A stretch of DNA of 64,000 bases from Pseudomonadota bacterium (lineage in GTDB: Bacteria; Bdellovibrionota; Bdellovibrionia; Bdellovibrionales; SG-bin7): contig JAWXAY010000100.1 of the NCBI GenBank assembly GCA_034439715.1, positions 55,353-119,352 of the forward strand, read 5' to 3'. The notes beneath the pieces are model-generated. The model did not search any database, was not told where the DNA came from, and was given only the letters and a program-made list of their open reading frames with translations. The stretch's first letter is position 1; each line of letters begins with the position of its first letter. Below, piece after piece: positions 15,027-55,454 of this stretch. Both the position numbers and the translations under genes were made by a program.

Positions 15027-16187
15027 TTAATGCCTGGGGTGATGGGATGAGCGAGCGCCCTTCCGCTGATGATTTCTTTCTAAGATATCACCACCTTTAA
15101 TTTTGTATTTTTGCGCGAGGCTTTGCCAGGCCTTGTAGTCGTTTGGCAATAGAAGTGTAATTGCCTCGCCACTGGCACCGGCGCGTGCGGTTCTGCCGAC
15201 ACGGTGAACGTAATCCTCATCGAACATTGGTAAATCATAATTCACAATAAGGGCGATGTCGGGTACGTCAATGCCACGTGAGGCAATGTCCGTCGCTACT
15301 AGTATACGAAATTTTCCGTCGCGAAAACCTTTTAATGCTTGGTTTCTCTGGCCCTGTGTTCGACCACCATGAAGTGCAGCAACTGAATATCCGTAGGATA
15401 AAAGATGCCTGGCTATTTTATCCGTACGTTTTTGGGTTCTGGCAAAAATGATGACTGAGCCTTTTCTAGCATTAAGCTCAATCATTAGCTGGTCATTTTT
15501 ATTTTCCATCGTAACTCTGATGGCCTTTTGGCGAATTTTATCAACTGGCTGTGATTCGGGTCCGACCGTAATTGACACTGGTTTAGCAAGATAACTTTCG
15601 GCTAACTTTCTGACCTTTGCAGGCATCGTGGCAGAGAAAAGCATAGTTTGTCGCTGTTTGGGTAAAAATTTTAGAATTTCATTAAGTTGAGGAGCAAATC
15701 CCATATCGATCATGCGGTCGCCTTCATCAAGCACCAAAAACTTAGTGTTTTTTAGCGACAAGTAACCCCGGCGCAAATGATCGTTGAGCCGCCCTGGTGT
15801 AGCCACAATGATCCGAGGTCCTCGTCGAAGAGAGTTTACTTGCCGACTCATGTCAGATCCACCAATTATTAAGGCGTGCGTAAAGCCTGGAATGAAAGAA
15901 GTCAAATCTCTGATCACATCGCCAATCTGCTGCGCCAGTTCGCGCGTGGGTGCCAAAACTAAAGCCGAGGCCTCGAGATTTTCGCTAAGACGGGTAATTA
16001 TAGGAATACAGTATGCCGCTGTTTTGCCAGAGCCCGTCTGAGCACAAGCAATAAGATCTTGATATTGAAGAGCCACGGGAATCGTTCGAGCCTGAATTTC
16101 GGTGGGCGTAATCCACTCTTGATTGCGAATGGATTTCTCGATCGGCTCCGGTAGTTTGAAATCAGAAAATTGGATCATTTGACTCAC
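15027..16187 (-). CDS. DEAD-box RNA helicase (RhlE-like, DEGD variant)
   Basis: AQTGSGKT, PTRELA, TPGRL, DEGD, SAT, HRVGRTAR. Confidence 0.92.
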   Translation of the reverse strand: MSQMIQFSDFKLPEPIEKSIRNQEWITPTEIQARTIPVALQYQDLIACAQTGSGKTAAYCIPIITRLSENLEASALVLAPTRELAQQIGDVIRDLTSFIPGFTHALIIGGSDMSRQVNSLRRGPRIIVATPGRLNDHLRRGYLSLKNTKFLVLDEGDRMIDMGFAPQLNEILKFLPKQRQTMLFSATMPAKVRKLAESYLAKPVSITVGPESQPVDKIRQKAIRVTMENKNDQLMIELNARKGSVIIFARTQKRTDKIARHLLSYGYSVAALHGGRTQGQRNQALKGFRDGKFRILVATDIASRGIDVPDIALIVNYDLPMFDEDYVHRVGRTARAGASGEAITLLLPNDYKAWQSLAQKYKIKGGDILERNHQRKGARSSHHPRH

Positions 16188-20030: not shown

Positions 20031-21590
20031 TTGGATCAAGAAATATTTGAGTGGCTGCTTTTATTAGGTCGATGGCTTCATATCACTGTCGCCATGGCGT
20101 GGATTGGCGCTTCATTCTTTTTCATGTGGCTCGATCGTACGCTTCAAAATAATGAACTCTGGATGGTCCACGGCGGCGGATTTTACCAAGTTAAAAAACA
20201 TCTCATGGGTCCGACAAGGGTTCCCAATCATTTGCACTGGTTTAAATGGGAGTCGTATTGGACCTGGCTCAGCGGACTTTTTTTAGTCATTCTGGTTTTT
20301 TATACCGGTAATGGTACTTTTCTTTTAGATTCGTCGGTTTCACAGGTCACTTACTGGCAGGCCGTTGGCATAAGTGTGGCATCGATGCTGGTATCCTGGC
20401 TGTATTATGATTTTTTATGGGAAAGTAAACTTGCTAAAAATAAACCTATAGTTGGGCACTTGCTAACTTTGTTGTGGTTTGTGGGTATGTCTTACTTTTT
20501 ATGTCATACTCTCAGCGGTAGAGCTGCGTATATTCATGTTGGTGGCATGCTTGGTACCTGGATGACCGCTAATGTGTTTTTGCGAATCATTCCTCGTCAA
20601 CTTAAAATGGTTGAGGCCGCAAAGCTTGGCGAGACGGTAAATCAAGAGTGGAGCAAGAACGCTAAGAATCGATCGACTCACAATACCTATTTTACCTTAC
20701 CTGTGATTTTCATAATGCTCAGCAATCACTTTCCGATGACCTATGGTCATAACTTCAACTGGCTCATTCTATTAGTTATCAGCGCGGCTGGTGCTGCGAT
20801 TCGTGAGTATTTTGTAGTTCGTCTGCAAAACCCTATTCGTGCGAAAATATTCGCTGCCGTCGGGGTCGTGTTGATTTTGGGAGTTATGTTTTTTACCAAG
20901 CAGAAGACACTTGTTCCCATAGAAACATATTCGGCTAAAGTTTCTGTAGAAAATCTTGGTCCAACGGCAAATGTTAAAGGTGTTGTAAAGTTTGTAGGAC
21001 CAGTACCGGTGGGCGAAAAGTTGCAGTTACCATTGGAGTGTAGGCAGGGCCGCGAGGGCGAGACTTTTTCAAATGAAGTTGTGGTTAATAACGGTAGGAT
21101 AAAAAATGTACTGATAAGAATCACCAAGGGGCTTGAAGGCAAAGTTTTTGGCGATGTGCCCGAGACTCCCGTACTCTTGGATCAAATAGATTGTCTCTAT
21201 GAACCAAGGGTGATTGGTGTTCGAGTTGGCCAAAAAATAGAAATTATTAATAGTGATTCTTTATTTCACAATGTGCGAGCGCTTACCAAAAACAATGAAG
21301 AGTTTAATATTTCAATGCCACAAAAAAACGATCGCTTTACTAAAGTATTTATGAAACCCGAAGTATTTTTACAAACAAAGTGTAGTGTACATCCCTGGAT
21401 GAGTGCCTATATTGCCGTTATAGAACACCCCTTTTTTAGCGTTACTAATGATACTGGCGAGTTTTTGATTAAGGATTTACCTTATGGGAACTATGCACTT
21501 GAAATTTGGCACGAAGTGTTCGGCGTTCAGACAAAAGAGATATCAGTAACTAAAGATCAGGATATTGAGTTTACCTTCAAAAGGGAGTGA
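20031..21590 (+). CDS. puuD: PuuD-type membrane urate hydroxylase N-domain fused to a cupredoxin/carboxypeptidase-regulatory-like domain
   Basis: RWLH...WIG.SF, WMVHGGGFY, LHWFKWESYWTWLSG, RSTHNTY, MLSNHFP; C-terminal DQ..C.Y.P, HNV, CSVHPWM, WHE; no CxxCH. Confidence 0.85.
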   Translation: MDQEIFEWLLLLGRWLHITVAMAWIGASFFFMWLDRTLQNNELWMVHGGGFYQVKKHLMGPTRVPNHLHWFKWESYWTWLSGLFLVILVFYTGNGTFLLDSSVSQVTYWQAVGISVASMLVSWLYYDFLWESKLAKNKPIVGHLLTLLWFVGMSYFLCHTLSGRAAYIHVGGMLGTWMTANVFLRIIPRQLKMVEAAKLGETVNQEWSKNAKNRSTHNTYFTLPVIFIMLSNHFPMTYGHNFNWLILLVISAAGAAIREYFVVRLQNPIRAKIFAAVGVVLILGVMFFTKQKTLVPIETYSAKVSVENLGPTANVKGVVKFVGPVPVGEKLQLPLECRQGREGETFSNEVVVNNGRIKNVLIRITKGLEGKVFGDVPETPVLLDQIDCLYEPRVIGVRVGQKIEIINSDSLFHNVRALTKNNEEFNISMPQKNDRFTKVFMKPEVFLQTKCSVHPWMSAYIAVIEHPFFSVTNDTGEFLIKDLPYGNYALEIWHEVFGVQTKEISVTKDQDIEFTFKRE

Positions 21591-21591
21591 C

Positions 21592-21915
21592 ATGATAAGC
21601 ACACATATTTTAGACACAAGTAAGGGCGTGCCAGCCGCAGGCATACCCGTTAAGTTAAGGTTTAGAAATGGGGACTCGTGGGCGGAGTTAGCGGTTGGAA
21701 AAACCAACTCTGACGGGCGATGCTCCTTTGAGTGCGAAATTGCTATGGGCATTTATAAAATTGTTTTTGAGGTGGAAGAATATCTCAAAAAACAAACTAA
21801 AGATTATTTTTACTCAAAAGTACCAGTCGTATTTAAGGTAACAGATGTTGGCCGCAAGTATCACGTGCCACTACTCTTGAATCCGTTTGGCTACTCCACT
21901 TATAGAGGTAGCTGA
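21592..21915 (+). CDS. uraH: 5-hydroxyisourate hydrolase (transthyretin-like)
   Basis: ISTHILD, TNSDGR, YHVPLLL and C-terminal YRGS. Confidence 0.95.
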   Translation: MISTHILDTSKGVPAAGIPVKLRFRNGDSWAELAVGKTNSDGRCSFECEIAMGIYKIVFEVEEYLKKQTKDYFYSKVPVVFKVTDVGRKYHVPLLLNPFGYSTYRGS

Positions 21916-21954: not shown

Positions 21955-24900
21955 GTGACAGATGCGTTATTGAATTATTTGAAGCGCGAAAGCCGTCCAG
22001 TTGTCGGCGTATCTGAGTTGATGGAAGTCGGAAAAGGAGGAGGACTTGAGAATAAAGAATCGTTAAAATTTTTGTGTGAATTATACGACCAGCTAAAAGA
22101 GAATCTTAATCAAGTTTTAAACCAGAGAAAAACTGATCGTCACTTTATCGATCAGCGAACCCGCGCTTGTTATGAGCTCAATAAAAACCTTGGTATCGAT
22201 TTTATATCTCCTCAATACGAAACAATTATTGGCCATGAGGATGCAAATGGCCGAATCGTTATCGGCCCCAAAAATGATTTTTATGCAAAAAGTGGTGGCG
22301 GTAAACCTATTGCGCAATTGCCCGATTTTTTACAGGGTCACCACGTGACTTTATTTGGTCCGCCAGATGATGCCAAACTTTCTATAAATGCCATGAATGC
22401 CTTTTATAGAAAAACCAAGGACGAACCTGAAATCGTATCGGAACTACTTTCAACCCACTTGAGTAATCCCAAGTGGGGTGCCGACGATGAAGATTCTAAG
22501 ACGCCACTTAGAGCTGATTTAGTTGCGGCCGGTGAAAATCTTACCAGGTGTTTTGCTGGCGATCTTGAGTATACCGATCCCAAAACACAAAAAAAATATG
22601 CGCTAGAAAAGGGACGACTCGCTCTCCCTATTAAGCGATTCCCGGGTTTAGCTTTACCCTGTACTTTTCTGCTATATCGAGACAATCCGCTGCCGCTTCA
22701 CCTTTACGATTTTGCTCTTCATCTTTTTGAGAATTGGCATAACGAACAAGCGTTATCGTTTTATGTGCCTAAGCTCGAAAATGAAGAAGAGGCCCGATAT
22801 ATTTACTTGATGTGCGACACTGCAGAGGCGATGATTCAAAAACTCCACCCCGAGTATAAAAAGGGCGCCATCAGGCTGTTTGTCGTTCTAGAAAATCCTC
22901 GGGCGATTTTTCGTGTCAATGAAATCATGGATGCACTTTACCCTTATTTTGCTGGCGCCTCTCTAGGCTGGCACGATTATTTAAGCTCCGCCGCTCGTTT
23001 GTTTAAGAATGATGCTAACTATCGGATTCCTGTTAAAGCTGATCCAGATATAGTAATTAAATATATTAAGGCTTCACATGATTTGCTGGCACAGGTTGTT
23101 GGTTCGCGTGGTGGAGTCAAAATTGGTGGAATGTACGGCGTTCTGCCAATGGATAGTGATCTGTTTAGTCCCTCATACCAAATTGCCATAAAGGGTTTTA
23201 TAAAAGATGTCGTTACCGAGCTTAAAAGAAATCTCTCAGGTTTTTGGGTGGCACATCCCGATTTTATTCGGTGTGCACTGGCCATAGTTGAAAGCTGGAA
23301 ATTTTATCAGTCAGGTGATAAATCAAAACTAGATACCTTGGTCACCTGCCTTTTAGATAAAAAATACCATAAGGAAATTAGGGAGTTTATCCATGCCCGC
23401 GATTTGGCGGGACTCGACGTCAATGACCCGCTCTATGCAAGGTCATTGATTGTCGCCGATATTAAAGAATCGACGTTTATTGCCAATAATCATCCCGATG
23501 AAATTCGTTACAATGTGTTTCAGTCTCTGCAGTATTTGACGGATTGGTTAAGTGGCAATGGTTGTGTGGCGTTACCAGCCGAAATAGAGGGTGTGCCGGT
23601 ACGAGTAATGGATGATTTGGCTACGGCCGAACGCTCCCGGTGGGAGGTCTGGCATGAGCTGCACCACGGTCGCTTTAATCTAGAGGAATTTTTGAAAATT
23701 GCGCATGAAGAGATGATATTTATACGCAAAGATCTTTCGAACTCAAAAAAAATCGTACAGGTTAAGTGGAATGAGCGGACTGAAAAATGGTACCCAGTGG
23801 CCATGAGGCTAATGATTGAACTAATGACTAGCCCGGCGCCAGTTGAATTTGCGACTGAGCTTTTAATGTCATTTACAGTGGACTCGATTAGGCAAGAAGC
23901 AGATCCTCTTTTGGCATTGAGTAAGATAGATCCCGGCAAACTTGCTTTGAATTCATATATAGAGCGCTTTAATTACTATTTTTTAATTTGCGGCAATCTT
24001 GTTTTTGCAAAGACGATGGCCCAAAATATATCGGTTGATTTAGCGCTGGCAGAAAAACTTATAAACAACTTTACTTTGGATGAAGTTAAGGCCGCCGCGT
24101 ATTTTCATGGTGACATTGGCGAGAATAAGAAAACACTTGATGAAATGGCATCAAATGAGCAGGCGCTGGTGCTGAATGAGGACAATAAAATTAAGTCCGA
24201 GTTAGCCGATCTTGGTTTTAAATACCTGCAAAAATTTGGAGTAAAGTTTTTAATTTCTGCAAAAAACAAATCTGGAAAAGAAATAGTGTCAGCGCTTAGG
24301 ACGCGCCTCGAAAATACGGCTTCACAAGAATTGATCAATGCCAAGTCTGCGCTTTGGGAAATTAGCCTTAAGCGATTAAAAACTCAAGCGGAGCAAAGCC
24401 TTCATCAGCAAATCGAGAGATTGCGAGCTATGCACAATATTGGAGATGCCGCAGTCAGTGTTTCATTGCCGGGGGGAAGTGGGCAATTGCTTTGTTTTGG
24501 TGGGGCGACCGAGCAAACCTGGTTTCAATATGCGTCTTTAAGTAAAACGTTGTCCAGTTGTTTTGCCGTCGAATACTTTCACAATAAAAATATTTCTCTC
24601 GATACTCCCGTGGATTCTTTGTTAGAAAAAACAGAATCTGCATTTCGCATAAAGTCTGCTGAGGTTACGCTCCGTCACCTTATGAATCACACAGCGCTAA
24701 ACATGCATTACGTCAACGGAGTGCCAACAGCAGAAAAAATGCCAAATGTACGTGAGTTGCTTGACCCGATTGTCGTGACCAATGTGCCGGGCACGAGATT
24801 TCAGTATTCTGGCGGCGGATTTCTAGTGCTCCAACATCTTATCGAAGCTTTAGAAGGAAAAACTATTGTTGAGATTACCAAAACGTTTTTTGACAAGTTA

Positions 24901-26496
24901 GATTTAAAAAATTTAAGCTTTGCACCAGTGCCTGCTCCTAATATGGAAAAAATGTTCCCCGCTTTTGCGGCGGGCGTCCTAGGTACTGCCACTGACATGT
25001 CGCGATTTTTAGGGTGCCTCACTGGCGCCTATAAATCGTTAGACGGCGCGGGCCCCATTTCTCATAATACTGCGATAGAGATGTTACACGGTGCAGACGT
25101 TGGAAGTTTTAAGTTCATAGGAGCAAAAATGGGGCTCGGTGTTTTTATAGCCGAAGCTGGCCCTAATCGCCTCATGTTACATCAGGGCGCGAATGATGGG
25201 TTCCGATCGGTTTTTGTTCACTGCTTTGATGGCCCCGATAGCGGCACTGGGTTTGTGGTGCTGTGCACTGGTGATTTTAATGGGGTCTTGTTTATTTCTG
25301 AAGTAGCGCAATTAATATTTAAGGAACTTAACCTAAAAGGTGTCGACACAAATAAATTTCTGAATAAATTTGAACTCTTAAATATCCCGCCTGAGGAAGT
25401 AGTCAATCGAGCCTATAAAAATTTACTGTTTGATGCCTTTGAGCCAGATTTGCCGGAAGTGATCAAACAAAAGGGCCCGCTTGACCCCCTCGCTTCAAAA
25501 AATCTCGCCGTAGGCGGTAAAATCGTAGAGACCAGCAATCAAGGCTTTGCCCGAGCTGAAAATCTTTTATCTCCGCACTTGCCGACATTTGATTCTGAGC
25601 TTTATGGCCGTCAAGGAAAAATAATGGATAGCTGGGAATCTGTACGTCATAACCCTAATTCAAACGACTATCTCATTTTTGAGTTAAAAAAACCGTCAAC
25701 AATTTCTCAGGTTTCTCTATCCACAAAATATCACCTCGGGAATCACGCTGAGGCAGTGGAAATCGAAGGTCTCGACAGTCAAGGGCAGTGGCAGAGAATT
25801 ATCGCGAAAACTGAGTTAAATGGACATGCCATTAAATTTCTCCTATCGCTGGCTAATAAATCGATTTTTACGACTATTAAAGTTTCGATGTTTCCTGACG
25901 GAGGATTAACCCGATTGGGTCTCTACAAAGATGAGCTCCCGGAACAGCCAAAAAACCAGATTTTTAGTGAAGGCATTCCTCACACTAATAAGCCGCTCAC
26001 ACCTCAGTTTAAGGGAGCACCACGTTTTTCGTCTGGCATCGAAATAGATATTGCCAGCCAGGCTTACGGCGGAAAAATAATTAGTGTGTCGAATCAGCAT
26101 TATGGTCCGGCTTCTCAAATTATTTCACCCTATCCGCCAATCAACATGTTCGATGGTTTTGAATCTGCGCGCAGTCGAGAAGCAGATCATTTCGAAGATG
26201 TGATTATTGAACTGGGTCGACCCGCAAAAATTAGCCGTATCGAAATAGATTTTACCTACTTTAAAAACAATAACCCTCGCGAATTAAGCATAGAGGGATT
26301 ATCTAAAAATGGCTGGGTTGTTTTAGTGACAAAAACAAACGTCAAAGCGTATGCCGGTAATGTGGTAGAGTTTAAGCCAAAAAATACAGAGGAGATCAAA
26401 CAAGTGAAAGTCGTGGTTTTTCCAGATGGCGGAATAAATCGGGTCAAAGTTTTTACGAGACCAGAGAAGAGACCTGAGAAGGGACCAGCAACATGA
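21955..26496 (+). CDS. fusion: malate synthase / OHCU decarboxylase / beta-lactamase-fold serine hydrolase / allantoicase
   Basis: MS: ADDEDS, YVPKLE, LENP, GWHDY, WVAHP, GNGCV, MDDLATAE. OHCU: HGDIG, EQ, Y..KFG..F, RLEN, KRL. Hydrolase: SLSK, YSGGG, HQG. Allantoicase: two repeats with DSWES/DGFES and PDGG..R. Confidence 0.88.
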   Translation: MTDALLNYLKRESRPVVGVSELMEVGKGGGLENKESLKFLCELYDQLKENLNQVLNQRKTDRHFIDQRTRACYELNKNLGIDFISPQYETIIGHEDANGRIVIGPKNDFYAKSGGGKPIAQLPDFLQGHHVTLFGPPDDAKLSINAMNAFYRKTKDEPEIVSELLSTHLSNPKWGADDEDSKTPLRADLVAAGENLTRCFAGDLEYTDPKTQKKYALEKGRLALPIKRFPGLALPCTFLLYRDNPLPLHLYDFALHLFENWHNEQALSFYVPKLENEEEARYIYLMCDTAEAMIQKLHPEYKKGAIRLFVVLENPRAIFRVNEIMDALYPYFAGASLGWHDYLSSAARLFKNDANYRIPVKADPDIVIKYIKASHDLLAQVVGSRGGVKIGGMYGVLPMDSDLFSPSYQIAIKGFIKDVVTELKRNLSGFWVAHPDFIRCALAIVESWKFYQSGDKSKLDTLVTCLLDKKYHKEIREFIHARDLAGLDVNDPLYARSLIVADIKESTFIANNHPDEIRYNVFQSLQYLTDWLSGNGCVALPAEIEGVPVRVMDDLATAERSRWEVWHELHHGRFNLEEFLKIAHEEMIFIRKDLSNSKKIVQVKWNERTEKWYPVAMRLMIELMTSPAPVEFATELLMSFTVDSIRQEADPLLALSKIDPGKLALNSYIERFNYYFLICGNLVFAKTMAQNISVDLALAEKLINNFTLDEVKAAAYFHGDIGENKKTLDEMASNEQALVLNEDNKIKSELADLGFKYLQKFGVKFLISAKNKSGKEIVSALRTRLENTASQELINAKSALWEISLKRLKTQAEQSLHQQIERLRAMHNIGDAAVSVSLPGGSGQLLCFGGATEQTWFQYASLSKTLSSCFAVEYFHNKNISLDTPVDSLLEKTESAFRIKSAEVTLRHLMNHTALNMHYVNGVPTAEKMPNVRELLDPIVVTNVPGTRFQYSGGGFLVLQHLIEALEGKTIVEITKTFFDKLDLKNLSFAPVPAPNMEKMFPAFAAGVLGTATDMSRFLGCLTGAYKSLDGAGPISHNTAIEMLHGADVGSFKFIGAKMGLGVFIAEAGPNRLMLHQGANDGFRSVFVHCFDGPDSGTGFVVLCTGDFNGVLFISEVAQLIFKELNLKGVDTNKFLNKFELLNIPPEEVVNRAYKNLLFDAFEPDLPEVIKQKGPLDPLASKNLAVGGKIVETSNQGFARAENLLSPHLPTFDSELYGRQGKIMDSWESVRHNPNSNDYLIFELKKPSTISQVSLSTKYHLGNHAEAVEIEGLDSQGQWQRIIAKTELNGHAIKFLLSLANKSIFTTIKVSMFPDGGLTRLGLYKDELPEQPKNQIFSEGIPHTNKPLTPQFKGAPRFSSGIEIDIASQAYGGKIISVSNQHYGPASQIISPYPPINMFDGFESARSREADHFEDVIIELGRPAKISRIEIDFTYFKNNNPRELSIEGLSKNGWVVLVTKTNVKAYAGNVVEFKPKNTEEIKQVKVVVFPDGGINRVKVFTRPEKRPEKGPAT

Positions 26497-27275
26497 AAAA
26501 GTTACGGAGGTGGGTGATTAAGGCAGGTAGTAAAATGGTGTGCGATGGTGGTCCTCTCCTTTTACTGAGTTGGATGCGGCAAGTTGATGAGTTAAGACGC
26601 AAACATAAAATCGAAGTTATTTGGGTGACTTCAGGAGCCATTTCCTGGGCTGTGAATCGCACCAAGTTTAAAAAACTGAATCGTAAACTTCAGCAAAAGC
26701 AGGCACTAAGTGCCATTGGGCAACCGTTGGTAATGGAACAGTATAATCTGGCCCTTCATAAATTAAACCTATTGGGCTCTCAGGTTTTGTTAACAGCGGG
26801 AGACATGCGAGATCGCACTCGGCGGAGAAATTTACAAAATACGCTCAATGAAATCTTACGCTGGAAGGTCACTCCAATACTCAATGAAAATGATGCTGTT
26901 GCCACCGAAGAAATCCAGTTTGGTGACAATGATTCATTGGCCTCGCAAGTAGCCATCATGATGAAAGCCGAACGTTTGGTATTGATGACGGATGTAGACG
27001 GTCTTTTCGATGATGATCCCAAAAAGAATAAGAGAGCTAAGTTGATCAATTATCGGCGCCGAATTAGTAAAGTAGACCTTCGCTTAGCTCGCAAAAAATC
27101 TAAATCTCTGCAAGGCACGGGCGGAATGTTTTCAAAACTTTTGGCTGTCCGTAGAGCGAGTCGCTCAGGTGTCGTCTGCCATTTGGTGCGTGGTGACTCT
27201 CCTAAAAATCTGTTAGAGATTGCCTCTGACCGGTCGGTCGGCACTCAAATAGGTGGACTCTATGAAAACAAATAG
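26493..27275 (+). CDS. proB: glutamate 5-kinase (no PUA domain)
   Basis: VIKAGS, TSGA, NENDAV, FGDNDSLA, GTGGM.SK. Confidence 0.93.
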   Translation: MKKLRRWVIKAGSKMVCDGGPLLLLSWMRQVDELRRKHKIEVIWVTSGAISWAVNRTKFKKLNRKLQQKQALSAIGQPLVMEQYNLALHKLNLLGSQVLLTAGDMRDRTRRRNLQNTLNEILRWKVTPILNENDAVATEEIQFGDNDSLASQVAIMMKAERLVLMTDVDGLFDDDPKKNKRAKLINYRRRISKVDLRLARKKSKSLQGTGGMFSKLLAVRRASRSGVVCHLVRGDSPKNLLEIASDRSVGTQIGGLYENK

Positions 27276-28521
27276 CGAAATGGAGCAGGCGCTCGTGTCT
27301 CTCCGCCAAGGAAACCGTCAGCTGCGAGGATTAAGTGCTGCGCGAAAAAACAAAACGTTAATAAAACTAGCAGAGATTATAGAAAGCGAAGCTCCGACAA
27401 TTTTGAGCGCAAATCTCATTGATCTAAAACAGCTACCCAAAGACACAACAGCCGCATTTCGTGACCGACTTGCGCTAGATCAAGACCGTGTGTTGGCTAT
27501 GGTGCAAAGTCTGAGGGAAGTGGCAAACCTCACTGATCCCGTCGGTGAAGTCATCGATGAAAAAACTCTTTCTAATAATTTAAGACTGAAGCGGGTGCGT
27601 TCTCCTTTGGGTCTTATCTTTATGATTTTTGAGTCCCGACCAAACGTGATTCTTGAGGCCTTTTCGCTCGCATTTAAATCCGGGAATTCAATAATACTTC
27701 GCGGCGGGTCAGACTCAGGCGCCACGAGCAAAGTAATTTATGGGTTAATGGCTAATGCCCTTTCAGAAAGTGGCGTGGAGTTTTCGGTATTCTATGGCTT
27801 GCAAGATTATGACCGAGGCATCGTCGAGAATTTGCTAAAAAGAAAAAATCTTATCGATGTCGTTGTTCCGAGAGGTGGAGAAAAATTAATAGATTTTGTG
27901 CAGAGTCATGCTCTTATGCCAATTATTAAAAATGATCGTGGTCTATGCCATACCTATGTAGACGAAGACGCCGATCTCGAAATGGCGGTGCGAATTGTAG
28001 CAAATGCAAAAACTCAGAGGCCCGGTGTGTGTAACGCTCTAGAGACAGTTCTCGTTCACCAAAATTGCGCTAAGGATTTTATTCCTAAGCTTTACCAGGC
28101 AACCGAATCCGTAAAATTAACCTGGCGAGTGGACCAGGCGAGCCTAAGTATTTTAAAAAATGAATCACGTGTACAGTTGGCTTCGCCAGCGGATTGGGAT
28201 ACAGAGTATCTTGATCTTATCATGAATTGTCGTATTGTTTCTAATTTGGATAGCGCCATTGAGCATATTGAGCGACACGGCTCAAAACACTCCGAAGCCA
28301 TTGTGACAAGTTCTGAAAAAAAAGCTCGGAATTTTCAAAATGAGGTCGATGCGGCGGCCGTTTATTGGAATGCTTCGACTCGATTTACAGATGGTTTTGA
28401 GTTTGGTTTGGGGGGCGAGCTTGGTATTAGCACTCAAAAAATTCACGTGCGGGGACCGGTTGGACTTCGCGAATTAACTACTCCCCGCTGGATTATCGAT
28501 GGCGACGGGCAAGTTCGGTAA
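27262..28521 (+). CDS. proA: gamma-glutamyl phosphate reductase
   Basis: FESRPNV, VCNALET, HSEAI, NASTRFTDG, GISTQKIH.RGP. Confidence 0.95.
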   Translation: MKTNSEMEQALVSLRQGNRQLRGLSAARKNKTLIKLAEIIESEAPTILSANLIDLKQLPKDTTAAFRDRLALDQDRVLAMVQSLREVANLTDPVGEVIDEKTLSNNLRLKRVRSPLGLIFMIFESRPNVILEAFSLAFKSGNSIILRGGSDSGATSKVIYGLMANALSESGVEFSVFYGLQDYDRGIVENLLKRKNLIDVVVPRGGEKLIDFVQSHALMPIIKNDRGLCHTYVDEDADLEMAVRIVANAKTQRPGVCNALETVLVHQNCAKDFIPKLYQATESVKLTWRVDQASLSILKNESRVQLASPADWDTEYLDLIMNCRIVSNLDSAIEHIERHGSKHSEAIVTSSEKKARNFQNEVDAAAVYWNASTRFTDGFEFGLGGELGISTQKIHVRGPVGLRELTTPRWIIDGDGQVR

Positions 28522-31540: not shown

Positions 31541-33307
31541 GTGAATACTTTCGATGATTTAGGCCTCAGCCCCGAAATATTAAGAGCCGTTCATGAACTT
31601 GGATATGAAAAGCCAAGCGCCATTCAAGCCGAGACGTTACCTATTTTACTTGGCCCTCCATCAGACTTTATCGGAATCGCTGCCACGGGCACGGGTAAAA
31701 CCGCTGCATTTGGCATTCCCATGTTAGAAAAAATTGATGCAACAAAAAAATCTGTGCAGGGGCTCATCATGTGTCCAACGAGAGAGTTGGCATTACAGGT
31801 ATGTGGTCAAATCAATCTTTTGGGTAAATTTAGAGGTATCAAAGCAATTCCAGTTTATGGTGGCGCTAGTTTAATGGACCAAGCCCGTGGACTACGTAAT
31901 GGGGCGCAAATTGTTGTAGGTACGCCGGGGCGACTTATTGATCACTTGGAGCGCACAACACTTAAACTTCAAGATGTTCAAATGATCGTGCTTGATGAAG
32001 CTGACGAAATGATTTCAATGGGATTCAAAGAAGATCTCGAAACGATTTTACAAGCCTCTCCGCGCGAAAAATCACAAATCTGGTTATTTTCGGCAACGAT
32101 GGACCGAGAAGTTTCTCGTGTGGCAGATACCTACTTACGAAATGCTAAGCAAGTAAAATCCAATCGCAACGAAATGTTATCTACAACCGTCGAGCAGATT
32201 TTTTATCCAACACGTGAAGGTGATAAACCTGAAATCCTCGTGAAAATTATCGAAATGGCCGAAAAATTTTATGGCCTCATTTTTTGTCAAACAAAGGCCT
32301 TGGTTGTCGATCTAACTCACTATTTGAATAGTCGTGGGTACCGTGTCGACTGCCTTCACGGTGATAAGACACAAAGTGATCGTGAGCGAACAATGCAATC
32401 GTTTCGCGATCGAAAAGTTTCTATACTCATTTGCACTGATGTAGCGTCGCGTGGTTTAGATGTTAAAGATATTACTCATGTGATCAATTATTCTATTCCG
32501 CGAGAGCTTGATGTTTATATTCATCGTATTGGCCGAACCGCACGAGTTGGTAAAGCCGGGGTCGCCATAAGTCTTGTGACACCCAGTCATCGAAATCTCG
32601 TTGGCCGAATAGAAAATATGACGAAAAGTAAAATTAAAGAAGGCAAAATTCCGACGCGAAAAGATATTGGCAGTAAAAAAGTAGCTAAAATCTTGCCCGC
32701 CTTTCAAGCGCAAACTTTTTTTGCTCGTGCGGTTGAACATTTAGGTGATGATTGGAAAGCCGTAATTGGTAGTATGCCCGTTGAAGAAGTGGTTGGCAGA
32801 TTCTTAACTTTGATGTCTCCTGAAGTTTTCAAAGATCAAGAAAAACTAAAAATGTTGCAACAATCACCAGGCCGTCCGGAATTAGCGGACAGGTCGGGCT
32901 CGGACAAACGCGATCGCAATCGAGACCGAGACCGAGACCGAGACCGAAATCGAGACGAGCGCGCGCCTCGCCGCGATGAACATCGCCCGCCTCGCCGCGA
33001 ATTTAGTGGTCCCCCGCGCCGCGACCGTGATGACCGCGCGCCTCGCCGCGATGAACATCGCCCACCTCGCCGCGAATTTAGTAGTCCCCCAGCGCGTGAT
33101 CGTGATGACCGCGCCCCTCGGCGTAGTGATGAAGCTCCGCCGCGGCGAATTGCTGGTGCAGGTGTTGGTGGCGAAAGACCCCCGATTCGCAGCCAAAAAA
33201 ATGACCAAAAAAATTACCAGAGACGCGATGAGCGCTCTGGCGAGCGCCGCGATAATCAGCATTGGAAAAAGAATAAACCCGCTGGAAGTCATCGCACCGA
33301 TCGCTAA
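31541..33307 (+). CDS. DEAD-box RNA helicase (DeaD/CshA-like) with Arg/Asp-rich tail
   Basis: TGTGKT, PTRELA, DEAD, SAT, HRIGRTAR. Confidence 0.93.
   Translation: MNTFDDLGLSPEILRAVHELGYEKPSAIQAETLPILLGPPSDFIGIAATGTGKTAAFGIPMLEKIDATKKSVQGLIMCPTRELALQVCGQINLLGKFRGIKAIPVYGGASLMDQARGLRNGAQIVVGTPGRLIDHLERTTLKLQDVQMIVLDEADEMISMGFKEDLETILQASPREKSQIWLFSATMDREVSRVADTYLRNAKQVKSNRNEMLSTTVEQIFYPTREGDKPEILVKIIEMAEKFYGLIFCQTKALVVDLTHYLNSRGYRVDCLHGDKTQSDRERTMQSFRDRKVSILICTDVASRGLDVKDITHVINYSIPRELDVYIHRIGRTARVGKAGVAISLVTPSHRNLVGRIENMTKSKIKEGKIPTRKDIGSKKVAKILPAFQAQTFFARAVEHLGDDWKAVIGSMPVEEVVGRFLTLMSPEVFKDQEKLKMLQQSPGRPELADRSGSDKRDRNRDRDRDRDRNRDERAPRRDEHRPPRREFSGPPRRDRDDRAPRRDEHRPPRREFSSPPARDRDDRAPRRSDEAPPRRIAGAGVGGERPPIRSQKNDQKNYQRRDERSGERRDNQHWKKNKPAGSHRTDR
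32921..33135 (+). repeat. intragenic repeats: (CGAGAC)x4 and a 75-bp tandem repeat (~2.2 copies)
   Basis: Units begin at 32960, 33035 and 33110 and encode RAPRRDEHRPPRREFSxPPxRDRDD. Confidence 0.9.
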
Positions 33308-35829: not shown

Positions 35830-36903
35830 ATGTCGCCATTGTCGATTTCAAAAACTAAATCGTTTAAAAATAAGCCTAGTGCCAGAGATCTTGGTTTTGG
35901 TAAGTATTTTTCCGACCATATGTTCCAAGTAAATTATTCCGAAGGTAGGAGCTGGCATTCACCACGAATTACTCCGTATGAACCACTACTTATTGAACCT
36001 GGCGCTTCGGTGTTGCATTATGGACAAGCGTTATTTGAGGGAATGAAGAGCTTTAGACAAACAGATGGCACCACCATTTTATTTCGTCCTGAATTCAATG
36101 CCAAAAGACTACAAAGTGGCGCTGAGCGGCTTTGCATGCAGGTGCCGCCAACCGAGCTGATGCTTGAGGGAATTCGTACTTTAGTTAAGACGGATCAAGA
36201 CTGGATTCCTCGAGAGAAGGGGACATCTTTATATATTCGGCCCACGTTAATTGGGACGGAGTCATTTTTAGGCGTCAGGCCGTCAAAAGAATATTTATTT
36301 TATGTGATTTGTTGTCCTGTGGGCTCATATTATGCGACAGGTGCTGATCCCATAAAAATTTGGGTTGAAGACAAGTATGTGCGCGCTTCGCTGGGCGGCT
36401 TAGGTGCCACTAAAGCTGGGGCCAATTATGCCGCCAGTCTTAAGGCAGCTCTTGAAGCTAAGAAGAGGGGCTATGCTCAAGTATTGTGGCTCGACGTCAC
36501 TCATCAGTACATCGAAGAAGTTGGCACCATGAACGTTTTTTTTGTTTTCGAAAACGAGATTGTGACACCAGCCCTTAACGGATCTATTTTGTCGGGTGGA
36601 GTTCGTGATTGTGTGATTACATTGCTCAAACATTACGGTTTAAAAATTACAGAACGTGAATTGTCTATGCAAGAAGTTATTGAGACCCACGCTGGTGGAA
36701 AGCTTAAAGAAATCTTTGGTACTGGCACTGCGGCAGTGATTTCTCCAGTAGGTGAGTTAGCCTCAGAAAAATTTGATTTAAAAATAAATAGTGGCGTGCG
36801 TGGCCCCATTGCCGCTCGTCTTTATCAAGACATAAGTGATATTCAATACGGTGATAAACCTGACCTGTTTAAATGGACCGAAAAGATTTTTAGAGCTACC
36901 TAG
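35830..36903 (+). CDS. ilvE: branched-chain amino acid aminotransferase
   Basis: LHYGQALFEGMK, YIRP, KAGANY, EEVGTMN, GTAAVISP. Confidence 0.95.
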   Translation: MSPLSISKTKSFKNKPSARDLGFGKYFSDHMFQVNYSEGRSWHSPRITPYEPLLIEPGASVLHYGQALFEGMKSFRQTDGTTILFRPEFNAKRLQSGAERLCMQVPPTELMLEGIRTLVKTDQDWIPREKGTSLYIRPTLIGTESFLGVRPSKEYLFYVICCPVGSYYATGADPIKIWVEDKYVRASLGGLGATKAGANYAASLKAALEAKKRGYAQVLWLDVTHQYIEEVGTMNVFFVFENEIVTPALNGSILSGGVRDCVITLLKHYGLKITERELSMQEVIETHAGGKLKEIFGTGTAAVISPVGELASEKFDLKINSGVRGPIAARLYQDISDIQYGDKPDLFKWTEKIFRAT

Positions 36904-38038
36904 ATATAGCTTTTGCGGTATTTTTTGTTTTAGCGCGAATACTGTCTAAACGGTCGACCAGATTCTGATCCCGTTCAGTCACAAAATTGACAACCAAACC
37001 TTTACGACCTGCACGTGCTGTACGGCCTACTCGGTGAATGTAGTTCTCCATCTGATGAGGCATGTGATAGTTTATCACGCGACCAACACATTCTAGGTCT
37101 AATCCTCGCGATGCCAAGTCGGTAGAAATTAACAGGCCGATTTTACCGTCACGGAATTCTTTTAGGTTAGAGCGACGTTCGACTTTGTCCATCTCACCTC
37201 GGTAAATGGCACATTTGCGGCCAGTTTGCTTGATGAGGTCGGCAAGTTTATCGCATTGTTCGCGAGTGTTGGTGAAGATCAATGTACCCCCTTTTACAGG
37301 GTCGCTCAATAAGTCTTCGAGGATAGGTAAGCGCTTGCCGTCAATGACGATTTGATTTCTCGTAGTCAGACTTGGTACCACTCGATGATGGCCCTCGCTG
37401 CGGATTACTTCGGCTTCTGAGAAAAGTTCATTCATGAGTTCCTGCACAGCGGGCGATATAGTTGCCGAGAATAAAGCGAGTTGGCGTTCGGGAGGGCAGT
37501 CCTTAACAATTCGCGTGGCGTCGGGCAGAAAGCCCTGGTCCAACATTTGATCGGCCTCGTCGAATACAAGGACGCGAATGTCGCTTAAATTTATTAAACC
37601 GCGCTCAAGGAGCTTTACTAAGCGTCCTGGGGTGGCGACTAGAATCTCGAAGGGTCCCTTAATATTATTCTTAGCGACGTCTAAAGTGGTGCCGCCAAGA
37701 ACCGATCGCACACGCAGGCGCGTCGTATGAGTAAAAACTTTAAATACTCGAGAGACTTGCTCTCCGAGCTCACGGGTGGGGACAATCACTGCCGCACGAG
37801 GTTGGCTATCTTTCGTGACCGCTTGCCCAGAACTTTCTAATCGCTTTAGCATATTCAAAACAGGTAGTGCATAAGCTAAGGTCTTGCCACTGCCGGTTTC
37901 AGCCACGCCCACTACAGAGCGTCCGCCCAAAAGTGCGGGAAGCGCCCGATTCTGGATTTCGGTGGGTTTCGCCATGCTCTTTTCGCTCAATGTCGCTTGG
38001 AGAGTTGGGAGTAAGTCGAAATCAGTAAATTTGCTCAT
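36896..38038 (-). CDS. DEAD-box RNA helicase
   Basis: AETGSGKT, PTREL, DEAD, SAT, HRVGRTAR. Confidence 0.93.
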   Translation of the reverse strand: MSKFTDFDLLPTLQATLSEKSMAKPTEIQNRALPALLGGRSVVGVAETGSGKTLAYALPVLNMLKRLESSGQAVTKDSQPRAAVIVPTRELGEQVSRVFKVFTHTTRLRVRSVLGGTTLDVAKNNIKGPFEILVATPGRLVKLLERGLINLSDIRVLVFDEADQMLDQGFLPDATRIVKDCPPERQLALFSATISPAVQELMNELFSEAEVIRSEGHHRVVPSLTTRNQIVIDGKRLPILEDLLSDPVKGGTLIFTNTREQCDKLADLIKQTGRKCAIYRGEMDKVERRSNLKEFRDGKIGLLISTDLASRGLDLECVGRVINYHMPHQMENYIHRVGRTARAGRKGLVVNFVTERDQNLVDRLDSIRAKTKNTAKAISR

Positions 38039-55118: not shown

Positions 55119-55454
55119 TTAGGCTGGTGACTGACTGTCAGAACCATGGGTTTTCACAATTTTATTGTAAAGCCCAAGCATTAAAAAAGAGGGAGCCCAA
55201 AGTCCAACAAAGTTAGCTAAATCCCTGCGTTTTGATGACGCCGCCAAGGCAGCGGATATCACCATCGAGCCGATGGACAGTGCAAGATAAAAGCCTGAAG
55301 GAATTTTAGACGTTTGATTTTCGATAACCTTTGTTACTTTGCCCTCTTGATGATCCTCATTCATGGTTAACAGATCGTCGGCTTTTTCCATTAGAGATCC
55401 CATTCCATTTAAAGATTGGTTCGGACTTTTAGATAAATTTTGATACTGTTCCAT
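55119..55454 (-). CDS. small membrane stress-type protein
   Basis: AGGAG RBS; EG.VT..IE.QT.KIPS, FVG.WAP.F...GLYNK.VK. Confidence 0.75.
   Translation of the reverse strand: MEQYQNLSKSPNQSLNGMGSLMEKADDLLTMNEDHQEGKVTKVIENQTSKIPSGFYLALSIGSMVISAALAASSKRRDLANFVGLWAPSFLMLGLYNKIVKTHGSDSQSPA

Follow-up and report, generated by a model that had tools for sequence, protein, structure and literature searches.

Can a bacterium carry urate down to glyoxylate when neither a usual allantoinase nor the usual ureidoglycolate lyase is found in its genome, and which proteins would then take the two vacant steps? This question is raised by one long open reading frame (ORF) in the DNA studied here. The window, by which we mean the whole stretch of 64,000 nucleotides that was analysed (positions 55,353 to 119,352 of contig JAWXAY010000100.1, GenBank assembly GCA_034439715.1, from a member of the Bdellovibrionota), holds in its ORF listing a single unbroken frame of 1513 amino acids (aa) at 21955..26496 (+), in agreement with an earlier note on this DNA. 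Joined in this frame are a malate-synthase-like domain, a decarboxylase of OHCU (2-oxo-4-hydroxy-4-carboxy-5-ureidoimidazoline), a domain with the beta-lactamase fold and an allantoicase, and the ORF is a genuine, conserved four-domain protein of purine (ureide) catabolism. From the sequence evidence described below, we propose that the beta-lactamase-fold domain is quite probably a new serine-type allantoinase, a non-homologous replacement of AllB and PuuE, and it is reasonably likely that the N-terminal domain fills the ureidoglycolate-lyase step. The ORF and its domains, with the Pfam matches that mark them, are as follows.

21955..26496, + strand: four-domain ORF, 1513 aa, GTG start, frame without interruption
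21955..23904, + strand: malate-synthase-like 'GWHD'-type domain, candidate ureidoglycolate lyase (aa 1-650; Pfam and 3cuz alignment)
aa 229-444 of the ORF: MS_TIM-barrel (PF01274), 69 bits against a gathering score of 26.4
aa 515-635 of the ORF: MS_C (PF20659), 39.6 bits against a gathering score of 23.1
24040..24381, + strand: OHCU decarboxylase domain (aa 696-809; OHCU_decarbox PF09349 at aa 699-809, 63.6 bits against a gathering score of 24; 5uou and 3o7h alignments, E ~1e-12)
24388..25374, + strand: serine beta-lactamase / DD-peptidase-fold hydrolase domain, candidate allantoinase (aa 812-1140; Beta-lactamase PF00144 at aa 820-1109, 84.7 bits against a gathering score of 27)
25465..26469, + strand: two-repeat allantoicase domain (aa 1171-1505; Allantoicase PF03561 in two stretches from aa 1187, 190.8 bits against a gathering score of 27; 1sg3/1o59, E ~5e-32)

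Pfam domains were scored against their gathering scores and NCBIfam equivalogs against their curated cut-offs, and all Pfam domains of the ORF exceed the former. Sequence matches to solved structures (1sg3 allantoicase, E 4.9e-32; 3cuz malate synthase A, 6.1e-28; 5uou OHCU decarboxylase, 2.3e-11) agree with them, and both the kinds of domain named in the earlier note and the boundaries it had drawn are upheld. A protein search with the 1513-aa query returned 636 matches at E <= 0.001, and for the best 120 of these the coverage of the query is 94-100% (99-100% for 117), the identity 56-66% and the Pfam set identical. These homologs come from Bdellovibrio, Bacteriovorax and related bacteria, and carry source names such as 'serine hydrolase', 'malate synthase' and 'allantoicase/malate synthase/CubicO group peptidase'. 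Of 201 genomes sampled from the phylum of the window, 21 have an intact full-length fusion, and one further copy (G107) lies in two pieces with stops. The fusion is widespread, and relatives of its N-terminal domain occupy 395 loci in the genome collection; the 80 loci that were retained belong mostly to Bdellovibrionota, and also to metagenome-assembled genomes (MAGs) of Planctomycetota and to two Desulfobulbales-like genomes with a free-standing form. That no characterised protein of this architecture is known had been stated before, and our literature searches, in which part of the papers were judged from titles and abstract starts only, likewise turned up no description of it. Thus the fusion is present in public databases yet undescribed in the literature found, and it combines a known pathway with a new architecture and two apparent non-orthologous replacements.

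Two of the four domains match known ureide enzymes by family. In the OHCU decarboxylase domain, which is preceded by a linker or unmatched N-terminal part (aa 651-695), H718 is matched in both 5uou and 3o7h by the His of HPRIGE, E735 (followed by Q736) by the Glu of EQ, and R807 by the Arg of RL, positions that we take to be the OHCU decarboxylase active site. H718, picked out in the earlier note, lies within 'HGDIGE' and is placed correctly. The PF09349 match covers only profile positions 41-155, and the TIGR03180 score is 70.9 bits against a cut-off of 139.4. In the allantoicase domain both repeats are present, with a TIGR02961 score of 196.9 bits against a cut-off of 277.9.

The enzymes usually expected beside these two are not found. 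In all that follows, an absence means that a family was not found with the given model, and the genomes compared are interrelated, many of them being incomplete MAGs. The source genome (95.7% complete, 111 contigs) yielded no AllA ureidoglycolate lyase in a profile search, no PuuE allantoinase (best match 20.9 bits) and no AllB above cut-off (TIGR03178). Its three AllB-like matches are all otherwise assigned, to a dihydroorotase (671.9 bits, NF006559), to a dihydropyrimidinase (603.2 bits, TIGR02033) that adjoins a methylmalonate-semialdehyde dehydrogenase and a nitrilase-family amidase, and to a pyrC-type protein. Likewise, no other malate synthase, isocitrate lyase, urease alpha subunit or glyoxylate carboligase was found in it, and no urea carboxylase above cut-off.

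For comparison, we took the 34 allantoicase-bearing genomes of the 201-genome phylum sample and divided them by architecture, before any other family was counted, into fusion genomes (22) and genomes whose allantoicase, of ~350 aa, stands free (12). AllB above cut-off is present in none of the 22 fusion genomes and in all 12 of the others, where it directly adjoins allantoicase in every case; two further sets of genomes with the family gave counts of 0 of 5 and 0 of 50. PuuE above cut-off (TIGR03212) was found in 0 of the 34 genomes and 0 of the 5 further carriers. AllA (PF04115) is missing from the results for all three sets of genomes with a GWHD-type domain (0/22, 0/5 and 0/50). An AllB-like dihydroorotase/hydantoinase paralog (E <= 1e-60 to the AllB model) occurs in 11 of the 22 fusion genomes, the other 11 having no such match.

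With the two genes directly upstream of the ORF, these observations can be arranged into a complete route.

20031..21590, + strand: PuuD-type membrane urate oxidase (519 aa; Urate_ox_N PF06181, 342.4 bits, aa 5-287)
21592..21915, + strand: 5-hydroxyisourate (HIU) hydrolase (107 aa from ATG; TIGR02962, 129.5 bits against 87.45; PF00576, 120.4 bits)

In the proposed order, PuuD would oxidise urate to HIU, HIU hydrolase would convert this to OHCU, and the OHCU decarboxylase domain would yield (S)-allantoin. The beta-lactamase-fold domain would then open the hydantoin ring to give allantoate by means of a serine nucleophile (S861, K864, Y951, H1076), and with such a mechanism it would be a non-homologous replacement of AllB/PuuE. 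The allantoicase domain would release urea and (S)-ureidoglycolate, from which the malate-synthase-like N-terminal domain would free the second urea and leave glyoxylate, replacing AllA. Three genes would thus encode six steps, from urate to glyoxylate and two urea, four of them on one chain; on balance we lean towards this scheme. The two reassigned activities are the part that we infer; observed are the domain architecture and how far it is conserved, the genes around it, the catalytic motifs and the lack of the usual enzymes. The earlier note had the last three domains following the order of the pathway, and since the evidence points to allantoinase for the beta-lactamase-fold domain, this would be literally true.

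The key residues of the N-terminal domain are R228, E313, W339-H340-D341, W431 and D554. Of these, R228, E313, D341, W431 and D554 are the equivalents of Arg166, Glu250, Asp278, Trp365 and Asp447 of Escherichia coli malate synthase A (MSA; the E. coli enzyme, ecMSA), and are kept in all 26 members of the large family; the base and Mg-ligand roles of the malate synthase residues are described in PMC3112382. Nonetheless, judged by its sequence, the domain is not a canonical malate synthase. The earlier note had called it malate synthase, and this stands for the likeness in fold and fails for canonical identity: it scores 136.7 bits with TIGR01344 against a cut-off of 594.5 (free-standing family members, 41-140 bits), is ~120 residues longer than MSA, and has an insertion of 5-13 residues ahead of the Asp447 loop. 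Of 85 MSA-invariant positions, which hold the same residue in 90% or more of 22 canonical sequences, 35 are changed in the family. Among these, R276W, W277H, R168P and E93T (W339, H340, P230 and T132 here) are shared by between 24 and all 29 of the family members, and the MSA-invariant K353 is also lost in the domain. The Arg276 to Trp change is found in 29/29 GWHD-type sequences, as is a retained Trp365; because W277H stands beside R276W, we call the motif 'GWHD'. In a quick IQ-TREE maximum-likelihood tree, a branch with a Shimodaira–Hasegawa-like approximate likelihood-ratio support of 100 separates the 22 canonical MSA sequences from the 29 GWHD-type ones. Alignments and tree cover canonical MSA and GWHD-type sequences, and no sequence of the eukaryotic ureidoglycolate lyase (UGL) group is among the 150 best representatives of the search with the domain.

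The context of the GWHD-type domains also differs. They are fused to allantoicase (P0424, P0437) or lie within four-domain proteins, whereas isocitrate lyase is the fusion partner of canonical GRWD-type domains (P0464, P0492, P0504, P0475). In the 34 allantoicase-bearing genomes, the sixth gene is AllA once, DUF6986 in 11 and the N-terminal domain in 22, never two together. A separate canonical MSA-type gene (277-750 bits) is present in 19 of 55 carrier genomes. In Desulfosediminicola flagellatus (complete genome; L030:5867-14004) and in a Geopsychrobacteraceae genome (L058:6019-13882), an operon comprises an ABC transporter, a free-standing GWHD-type malate-synthase-like protein, an (S)-ureidoglycine aminohydrolase (TIGR03214 scores of 333 and 330 bits, cut-off 200), an allantoate amidohydrolase and a GntR regulator. 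The two hydrolases constitute another route to (S)-ureidoglycolate, and AllA was not found in either genome. A precedent exists in zebrafish, where a malate-synthase-like protein without malate-synthase activity was shown biochemically to be the missing ureidoglycolate lyase of animals (PMC10120013). By the logic of that study, malate synthases in bacterial purine operons are genuine because a dedicated lyase is present, and the GWHD family, whose genomes lack a detectable AllA, is then a lyase candidate.

Several points weigh against assigning the N-terminal domain to the lyase step alone. The acetyl-coenzyme A (acetyl-CoA) site, taken as the ecMSA residues named in PMC3112382, is mostly kept in the large family: G96, M330 and P369 are each retained in 25/26 members and C438 in 24/26, M102 is Met or Leu in 23/26, and I94 is replaced by Leu in 24/26. 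T95 is the sole named position that is changed, to Phe in 26/26, and the site is degenerate only in the small P0434/P0424/P0437 group. W365, which is Met in the zebrafish lyase, is kept in the GWHD family. True malate synthases do not all have Arg276, the isoform of haloarchaea carrying Glu190 at that place (PMC3112382), and for this reason we rejected the change at this position as a discriminator between lyase and synthase. Since no glyoxylate carboligase, malate synthase or isocitrate lyase was found in the source genome, a domain that is only a lyase would leave glyoxylate without a found sink; and with neither urease nor urea carboxylase above cut-off, this genome shows no use for urea. 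Finally, the genomes are kin, mostly of one phylum, and many are incomplete, so that the counts overstate their independence. As the acetyl-CoA-site residues are mostly kept, condensation of glyoxylate with acetyl-CoA may be an activity of the domain in addition to the lyase reaction or in place of it. We regard a lyase alone as a tentative choice and a lyase and synthase in one site as possible, if somewhat doubtful; an activity of some other kind seems improbable.

The alternative that survives best follows the earlier note in taking the domain as a malate synthase; it would be a synthase only and use acetyl-CoA to trap toxic glyoxylate as malate, ureidoglycolate being split by the allantoicase domain or decaying spontaneously; the beta-lactamase-fold domain may be an allantoinase even so. 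In its favour, the domain retains the catalytic Arg, Trp365, the two Mg ligands and Asp447 as base, and of the seven positions named for the acetyl-CoA site 5 to 6 are kept or conservatively replaced. With no other malate synthase, isocitrate lyase, glyoxylate carboligase or urease found in the source genome, malate would be the only assimilable product. A reference title in PMC10120013 describes ureidoglycolate as 'a substrate of allantoicase', and the same article reports bona fide malate synthase genes from the DAL cluster of yeast and from purine operons. However, those malate synthases all have a dedicated lyase alongside, whereas AllA was found in none of the GWHD-type genomes searched here. 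A role as synthase only would also sit poorly with a separate canonical gene in about a third of the carriers (19/55), with a sixth slot shared exclusively with AllA and DUF6986, with a score far below the MSA equivalog cut-off in a clade apart, and with the loss of R276, W277, R168, E93, K353 and other MSA-invariant residues. We therefore consider it rather unlikely, and retain the ureidoglycolate-lyase step as the preferred assignment.

The beta-lactamase-fold domain, the candidate allantoinase, carries the motifs S861-x-x-K864, Y951-S-G and H1076-Q-G. In a family alignment of 29 rows (A1), the A-S-L-S-K stretch (S861, K864), H912, H918-Y919, Y951-S-G, P1002, A1005-A1006-G1007, D1048 and G1050 are invariant, and H1076-Q1077 is retained in at least 90% of the rows; in the listed full-length homologs, the SxxK, YSG and HQxxN serine-hydrolase motifs are kept in 120 of 120. 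The AlphaFold (AF2) model of the domain has a mean predicted local distance difference test score (pLDDT) of 94.6 and a predicted template-modelling score (pTM) of 0.93. Its Foldseek matches (probability 1.00; TM 0.68-0.76; 15-22% identity) include R61 DD-peptidase, LACTB, alkaline D-peptidase, D-amino-acid amidase, ClbP, a family-VIII-type esterase and class C beta-lactamases. Since these enzymes cleave amide, ester and cyclic-amide bonds via an acyl-serine, opening of the hydantoin ring of allantoin would be chemically plausible. A label as resistance enzyme was considered and has no grounds, the class C beta-lactamase equivalog NF033085 giving 20.7 bits against a cut-off of 415. ESM Atlas clusters for the domain are named only generically, as 'beta-lactamase domain'.

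No domain of the ORF matches the AllB (TIGR03178) or PuuE (TIGR03212) models, and our claim is one of functional replacement, not of family membership. Three canonical clusters serve for comparison: PuuD-AllB-allantoicase-OHCU decarboxylase-HIU hydrolase-DUF6986 (L021), PuuD-AllB-allantoicase ... DUF6986 (L020), and PuuD-AllB-allantoicase-OHCU decarboxylase-HIU hydrolase with a divergent AllA (L022). When the fusion order, PuuD-HIU hydrolase-[malate-synthase-like-OHCU decarboxylase-beta-lactamase fold-allantoicase], is compared with these, nothing but the beta-lactamase-fold domain is left to take the place of AllB. Its nearest relatives outside the four-domain proteins point the same way. Many are fused to allantoicase alone (for example P0242, P0249, P0324 and the EukProt protein P0261), and there are fusions to OHCU decarboxylase alone (P0292, P0312) and, in P0351, to HIU hydrolase alone. 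Further relatives of ~400-450 aa stand free, several of them from eukaryotic algae and protists; among P0258-P0342 these comprise Prymnesium parvum, Amorphochlora amoebiformis, and EukProt and MMETSP transcripts.

Eukaryotic ureide enzymes operate in peroxisomes. A C-terminal end resembling the type 1 peroxisomal targeting signal (PTS1), [SAC][KRH][LM], is found in 27 of 71 free-standing homologs of 380-480 aa (SKL 14 times) and in 5 of the 13 labelled as eukaryotic; the endings include SKL, SRL and ARL. This suggests that the algal and protist homologs are a peroxisomal enzyme of the same function. A peroxisomal location is stated for UGL and malate synthase in PMC10120013.

Some observations tell against this assignment. 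The source copy is without ~16-20 residues after aa 998 (window ~24946-24951), including a 'YAxG' stretch held by the other 119 aligned full-length homologs, and its own beta-lactamase-fold domain could be impaired by this deletion; a second, shorter deletion is common to several homologs. Copies that do not have the deletion after aa 998 are found, for example, in the complete genomes of Bdellovibrio sp. HCB337 (L032) and Peredibacter sp. HCB2-198 (L061). In addition, the dihydroorotase/hydantoinase paralogs of 11 of the 22 fusion genomes could in principle hydrolyse allantoin.

The corresponding alternative, which we judge unlikely, is that the domain is not an allantoinase at all but a peptidase, an esterase, a scaffold or an enzyme for another ureide, allantoin being opened by a dihydroorotase/hydantoinase paralog or an unrecognised enzyme. 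The nearest solved structures are indeed DD-peptidases, LACTB, esterases and D-amino-acid amidases, with no allantoinase among them, and the source genome, besides the unique deletion in its copy, has two AllB-like paralogs at ~277-280 bits. Yet these two best paralogs exceed the dihydroorotase and dihydropyrimidinase cut-offs, the latter adjoining pyrimidine-catabolic genes, and half of the fusion genomes have no AllB-like match even at E <= 1e-60. The catalytic motifs are invariant, the four different fusion combinations have ureide enzymes as their only partners, and the distribution is strictly complementary to that of AllB (0/22 against 12/12). To our knowledge, only two allantoinase families, AllB and PuuE, have been described, and our literature searches found neither a beta-lactamase-fold or serine-hydrolase allantoinase nor a third allantoinase family.

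All three domain junctions are bridged, with 0 differences, by contigs of four sequencing runs not marked as possible source, for example X4 record 2 (22140-25258), X5 record 10 (24384-25629) and X6 record 17 (25091-26086); the junctions, for which the earlier note had proposed a check by reads and homologs, are supported by these and by the full-length homologs. That assembly has created the long ORF as a chimera, or that it is a pseudogene in decay, as could be supposed of a metagenome-assembled draft in 111 contigs when 3 of 22 copies have in-frame stops, is refuted by the full-length homologs with their catalytic motifs kept in all 120 listed, by the intact copies in the phylum sample, by the unbroken frame and by the junction-spanning contigs, and has a negligible probability. 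The three copies with in-frame stops are G107:C32:4765-9206 (two pieces; 1 TGA, 3 TAG), G177:C6:115815-120473 (1 TAA) and G073:C52:7039-11640 (1 TGA), and their stops may reflect decay, sequencing error or recoding.

The fusion locus is a urate-degradation locus, as is evident from the fusion loci of ten other genomes. PuuD is encoded no more than 2.5 kb from the fusion in 10/10, and HIU hydrolase is directly upstream in 10/10 (8 by Pfam; 2 by tblastn, 47-49% identity over 107 aa). Xanthine dehydrogenase genes flank the fusion in 3 of the 10 loci and molybdenum-cofactor genes in one; the source genome has one xanthine-dehydrogenase-type gene, located elsewhere. The Planctomycetota copies adjoin a classical uricase and a cytidine/deoxycytidylate-deaminase-family gene, or HIU hydrolase. 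In the window, the program-made ORF for HIU hydrolase opens at TTG 21565, and the gene start was taken as ATG 21592. Described PuuD has a cytochrome c part. The PuuD of the window has ~230 extra C-terminal residues, with a CarboxypepD_reg-like beta-sandwich (aa 459-516) and a faint amicyanin-like match (aa 391-462, E 0.0056); the beta-sandwich is also present in 8 of 10 PuuD genes adjoining fusions.

Directly 3' of the fusion (window 26493-28521) lie an amino-acid-kinase-family gene and then an aldehyde-dehydrogenase-family gene, by size and family candidates for proB and proA. The ATG of the former overlaps the stop codon of the fusion (26493-26496), which suggests co-translation in the source genome; this kinase neighbour was not seen at the other ten loci. 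Elsewhere in the window, three ORFs (15027-16187, - strand; 31541-33307, + strand; 36896-38038, - strand) look by eye, from their translations, like DEAD-box helicases, the second having a long Arg/Asp/Pro-rich repetitive tail at its end.

The genomes with a free-standing allantoicase hold a candidate of their own for the sixth step. DUF6986 (PF22484, ~450 aa, without an NCBIfam name) is present in the ureide cluster of 11 of 11 such genomes without AllA, as in the following.

L021:9657-11039, + strand: DUF6986 gene
L020:9761-11116, + strand: DUF6986 gene
G175, G004, G171, G151, G077, G013, G046, G108 and G022: genomes with further DUF6986 genes

The family has the malate-synthase-like motifs DFEDG, LPKV, VETTQ, GTYDY, GWDLHP and DDAAT, and a profile comparison with the GWHD family gave an E of 3.5e-4 and a probability of 37.5%. 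DUF6986 may be another compact ureidoglycolate lyase or malate synthase; no paper on it was found in our literature searches.

A bolder version of the scheme, which we offer as speculative and rather improbable, has the one polypeptide taking OHCU to malate and two urea. Its allantoinase would be of a third class, with a serine as nucleophile, that marine algae also have in their peroxisomes; its N-terminal domain would be a bifunctional ureidoglycolate lyase/malate synthase, and DUF6986 a second such enzyme, compact and likewise bacterial. In such a bifunctional N-terminal domain, urea would be expelled from Mg-bound ureidoglycolate and the nascent glyoxylate condensed with acetyl-CoA in the same pocket, never being released free.

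If the two assignments hold, the serine-hydrolase allantoinase would be a third, independent invention of this activity. It would close a gap in the pathway of many Bdellovibrionota and Planctomycetota, and probably also in that of the eukaryotic algae that have homologs with peroxisomal signals. Finding a malate-synthase-like ureidoglycolate lyase in bacteria would broaden a result of 2023 that was confined to eukaryotes, and would bear on the origin of that enzyme. Annotation as 'serine hydrolase' or 'malate synthase' hides what would be a complete urate-degradation route from metabolic reconstructions of these predatory bacteria.

Among known systems, the zebrafish malate-synthase-like lyase (DrMSL/UGL) is the nearest counterpart of the N-terminal domain. 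According to PMC10120013 and the present comparison, it shares with the GWHD family the malate-synthase fold, a tie to allantoicase and uricase and not to isocitrate lyase, the retained glyoxylate-site residues, the loss of Arg276 and a genome without an AllA-type lyase. It differs in that its clade is eukaryotic only, whereas the GWHD family is bacterial; Arg276 is Ile there and Trp here, Trp365 is Met there and kept here, and the acetyl-CoA site is unconserved there and mostly kept here, where the domain is also fused to three other enzymes. Compared with malate synthase A (E. coli AceB, 3CUZ), the domain has the same TIM-barrel and C-terminal domain with equivalents of Arg166, Glu250, Asp278, Trp365 and Asp447; unlike malate synthase A and the malate synthase-isocitrate lyase fusions, it is joined to ureide enzymes, and was never seen here with isocitrate lyase.

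The candidate allantoinase would catalyse the same reaction as AllB (amidohydrolase superfamily) and PuuE (polysaccharide-deacetylase family), occupies the slot between OHCU decarboxylase and allantoicase, and has a distribution complementary to that of AllB. It has no homology to either: its fold is that of serine beta-lactamases and DD-peptidases, its motifs are SxxK, YSG and HQG, and from this fold and these motifs the chemistry would proceed through a covalent acyl-enzyme, not through metal-assisted or deacetylase-type hydrolysis. With R61 DD-peptidase (Streptomyces), D-amino-acid amidase and LACTB (PF00144) it shares the fold and the layout of the catalytic motifs, and differs from this group by having no signal peptide context, by forming part of a cytoplasmic catabolic fusion, and by its eukaryotic relatives with peroxisomal signals.

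Finally, allantoin synthase, the fusion of HIU hydrolase and OHCU decarboxylase known from plants, diatoms and some bacteria (PMC13751858), likewise joins consecutive ureide enzymes with unstable intermediates; the earlier note had supposed that such intermediates may be channelled in the present protein, and for the HIU hydrolase-OHCU decarboxylase fusions channelling has not been demonstrated according to this 2026 review. Allantoin synthase consists of two domains with other partners, whereas in the locus described here HIU hydrolase is separate and OHCU decarboxylase is fused to three domains for later steps.

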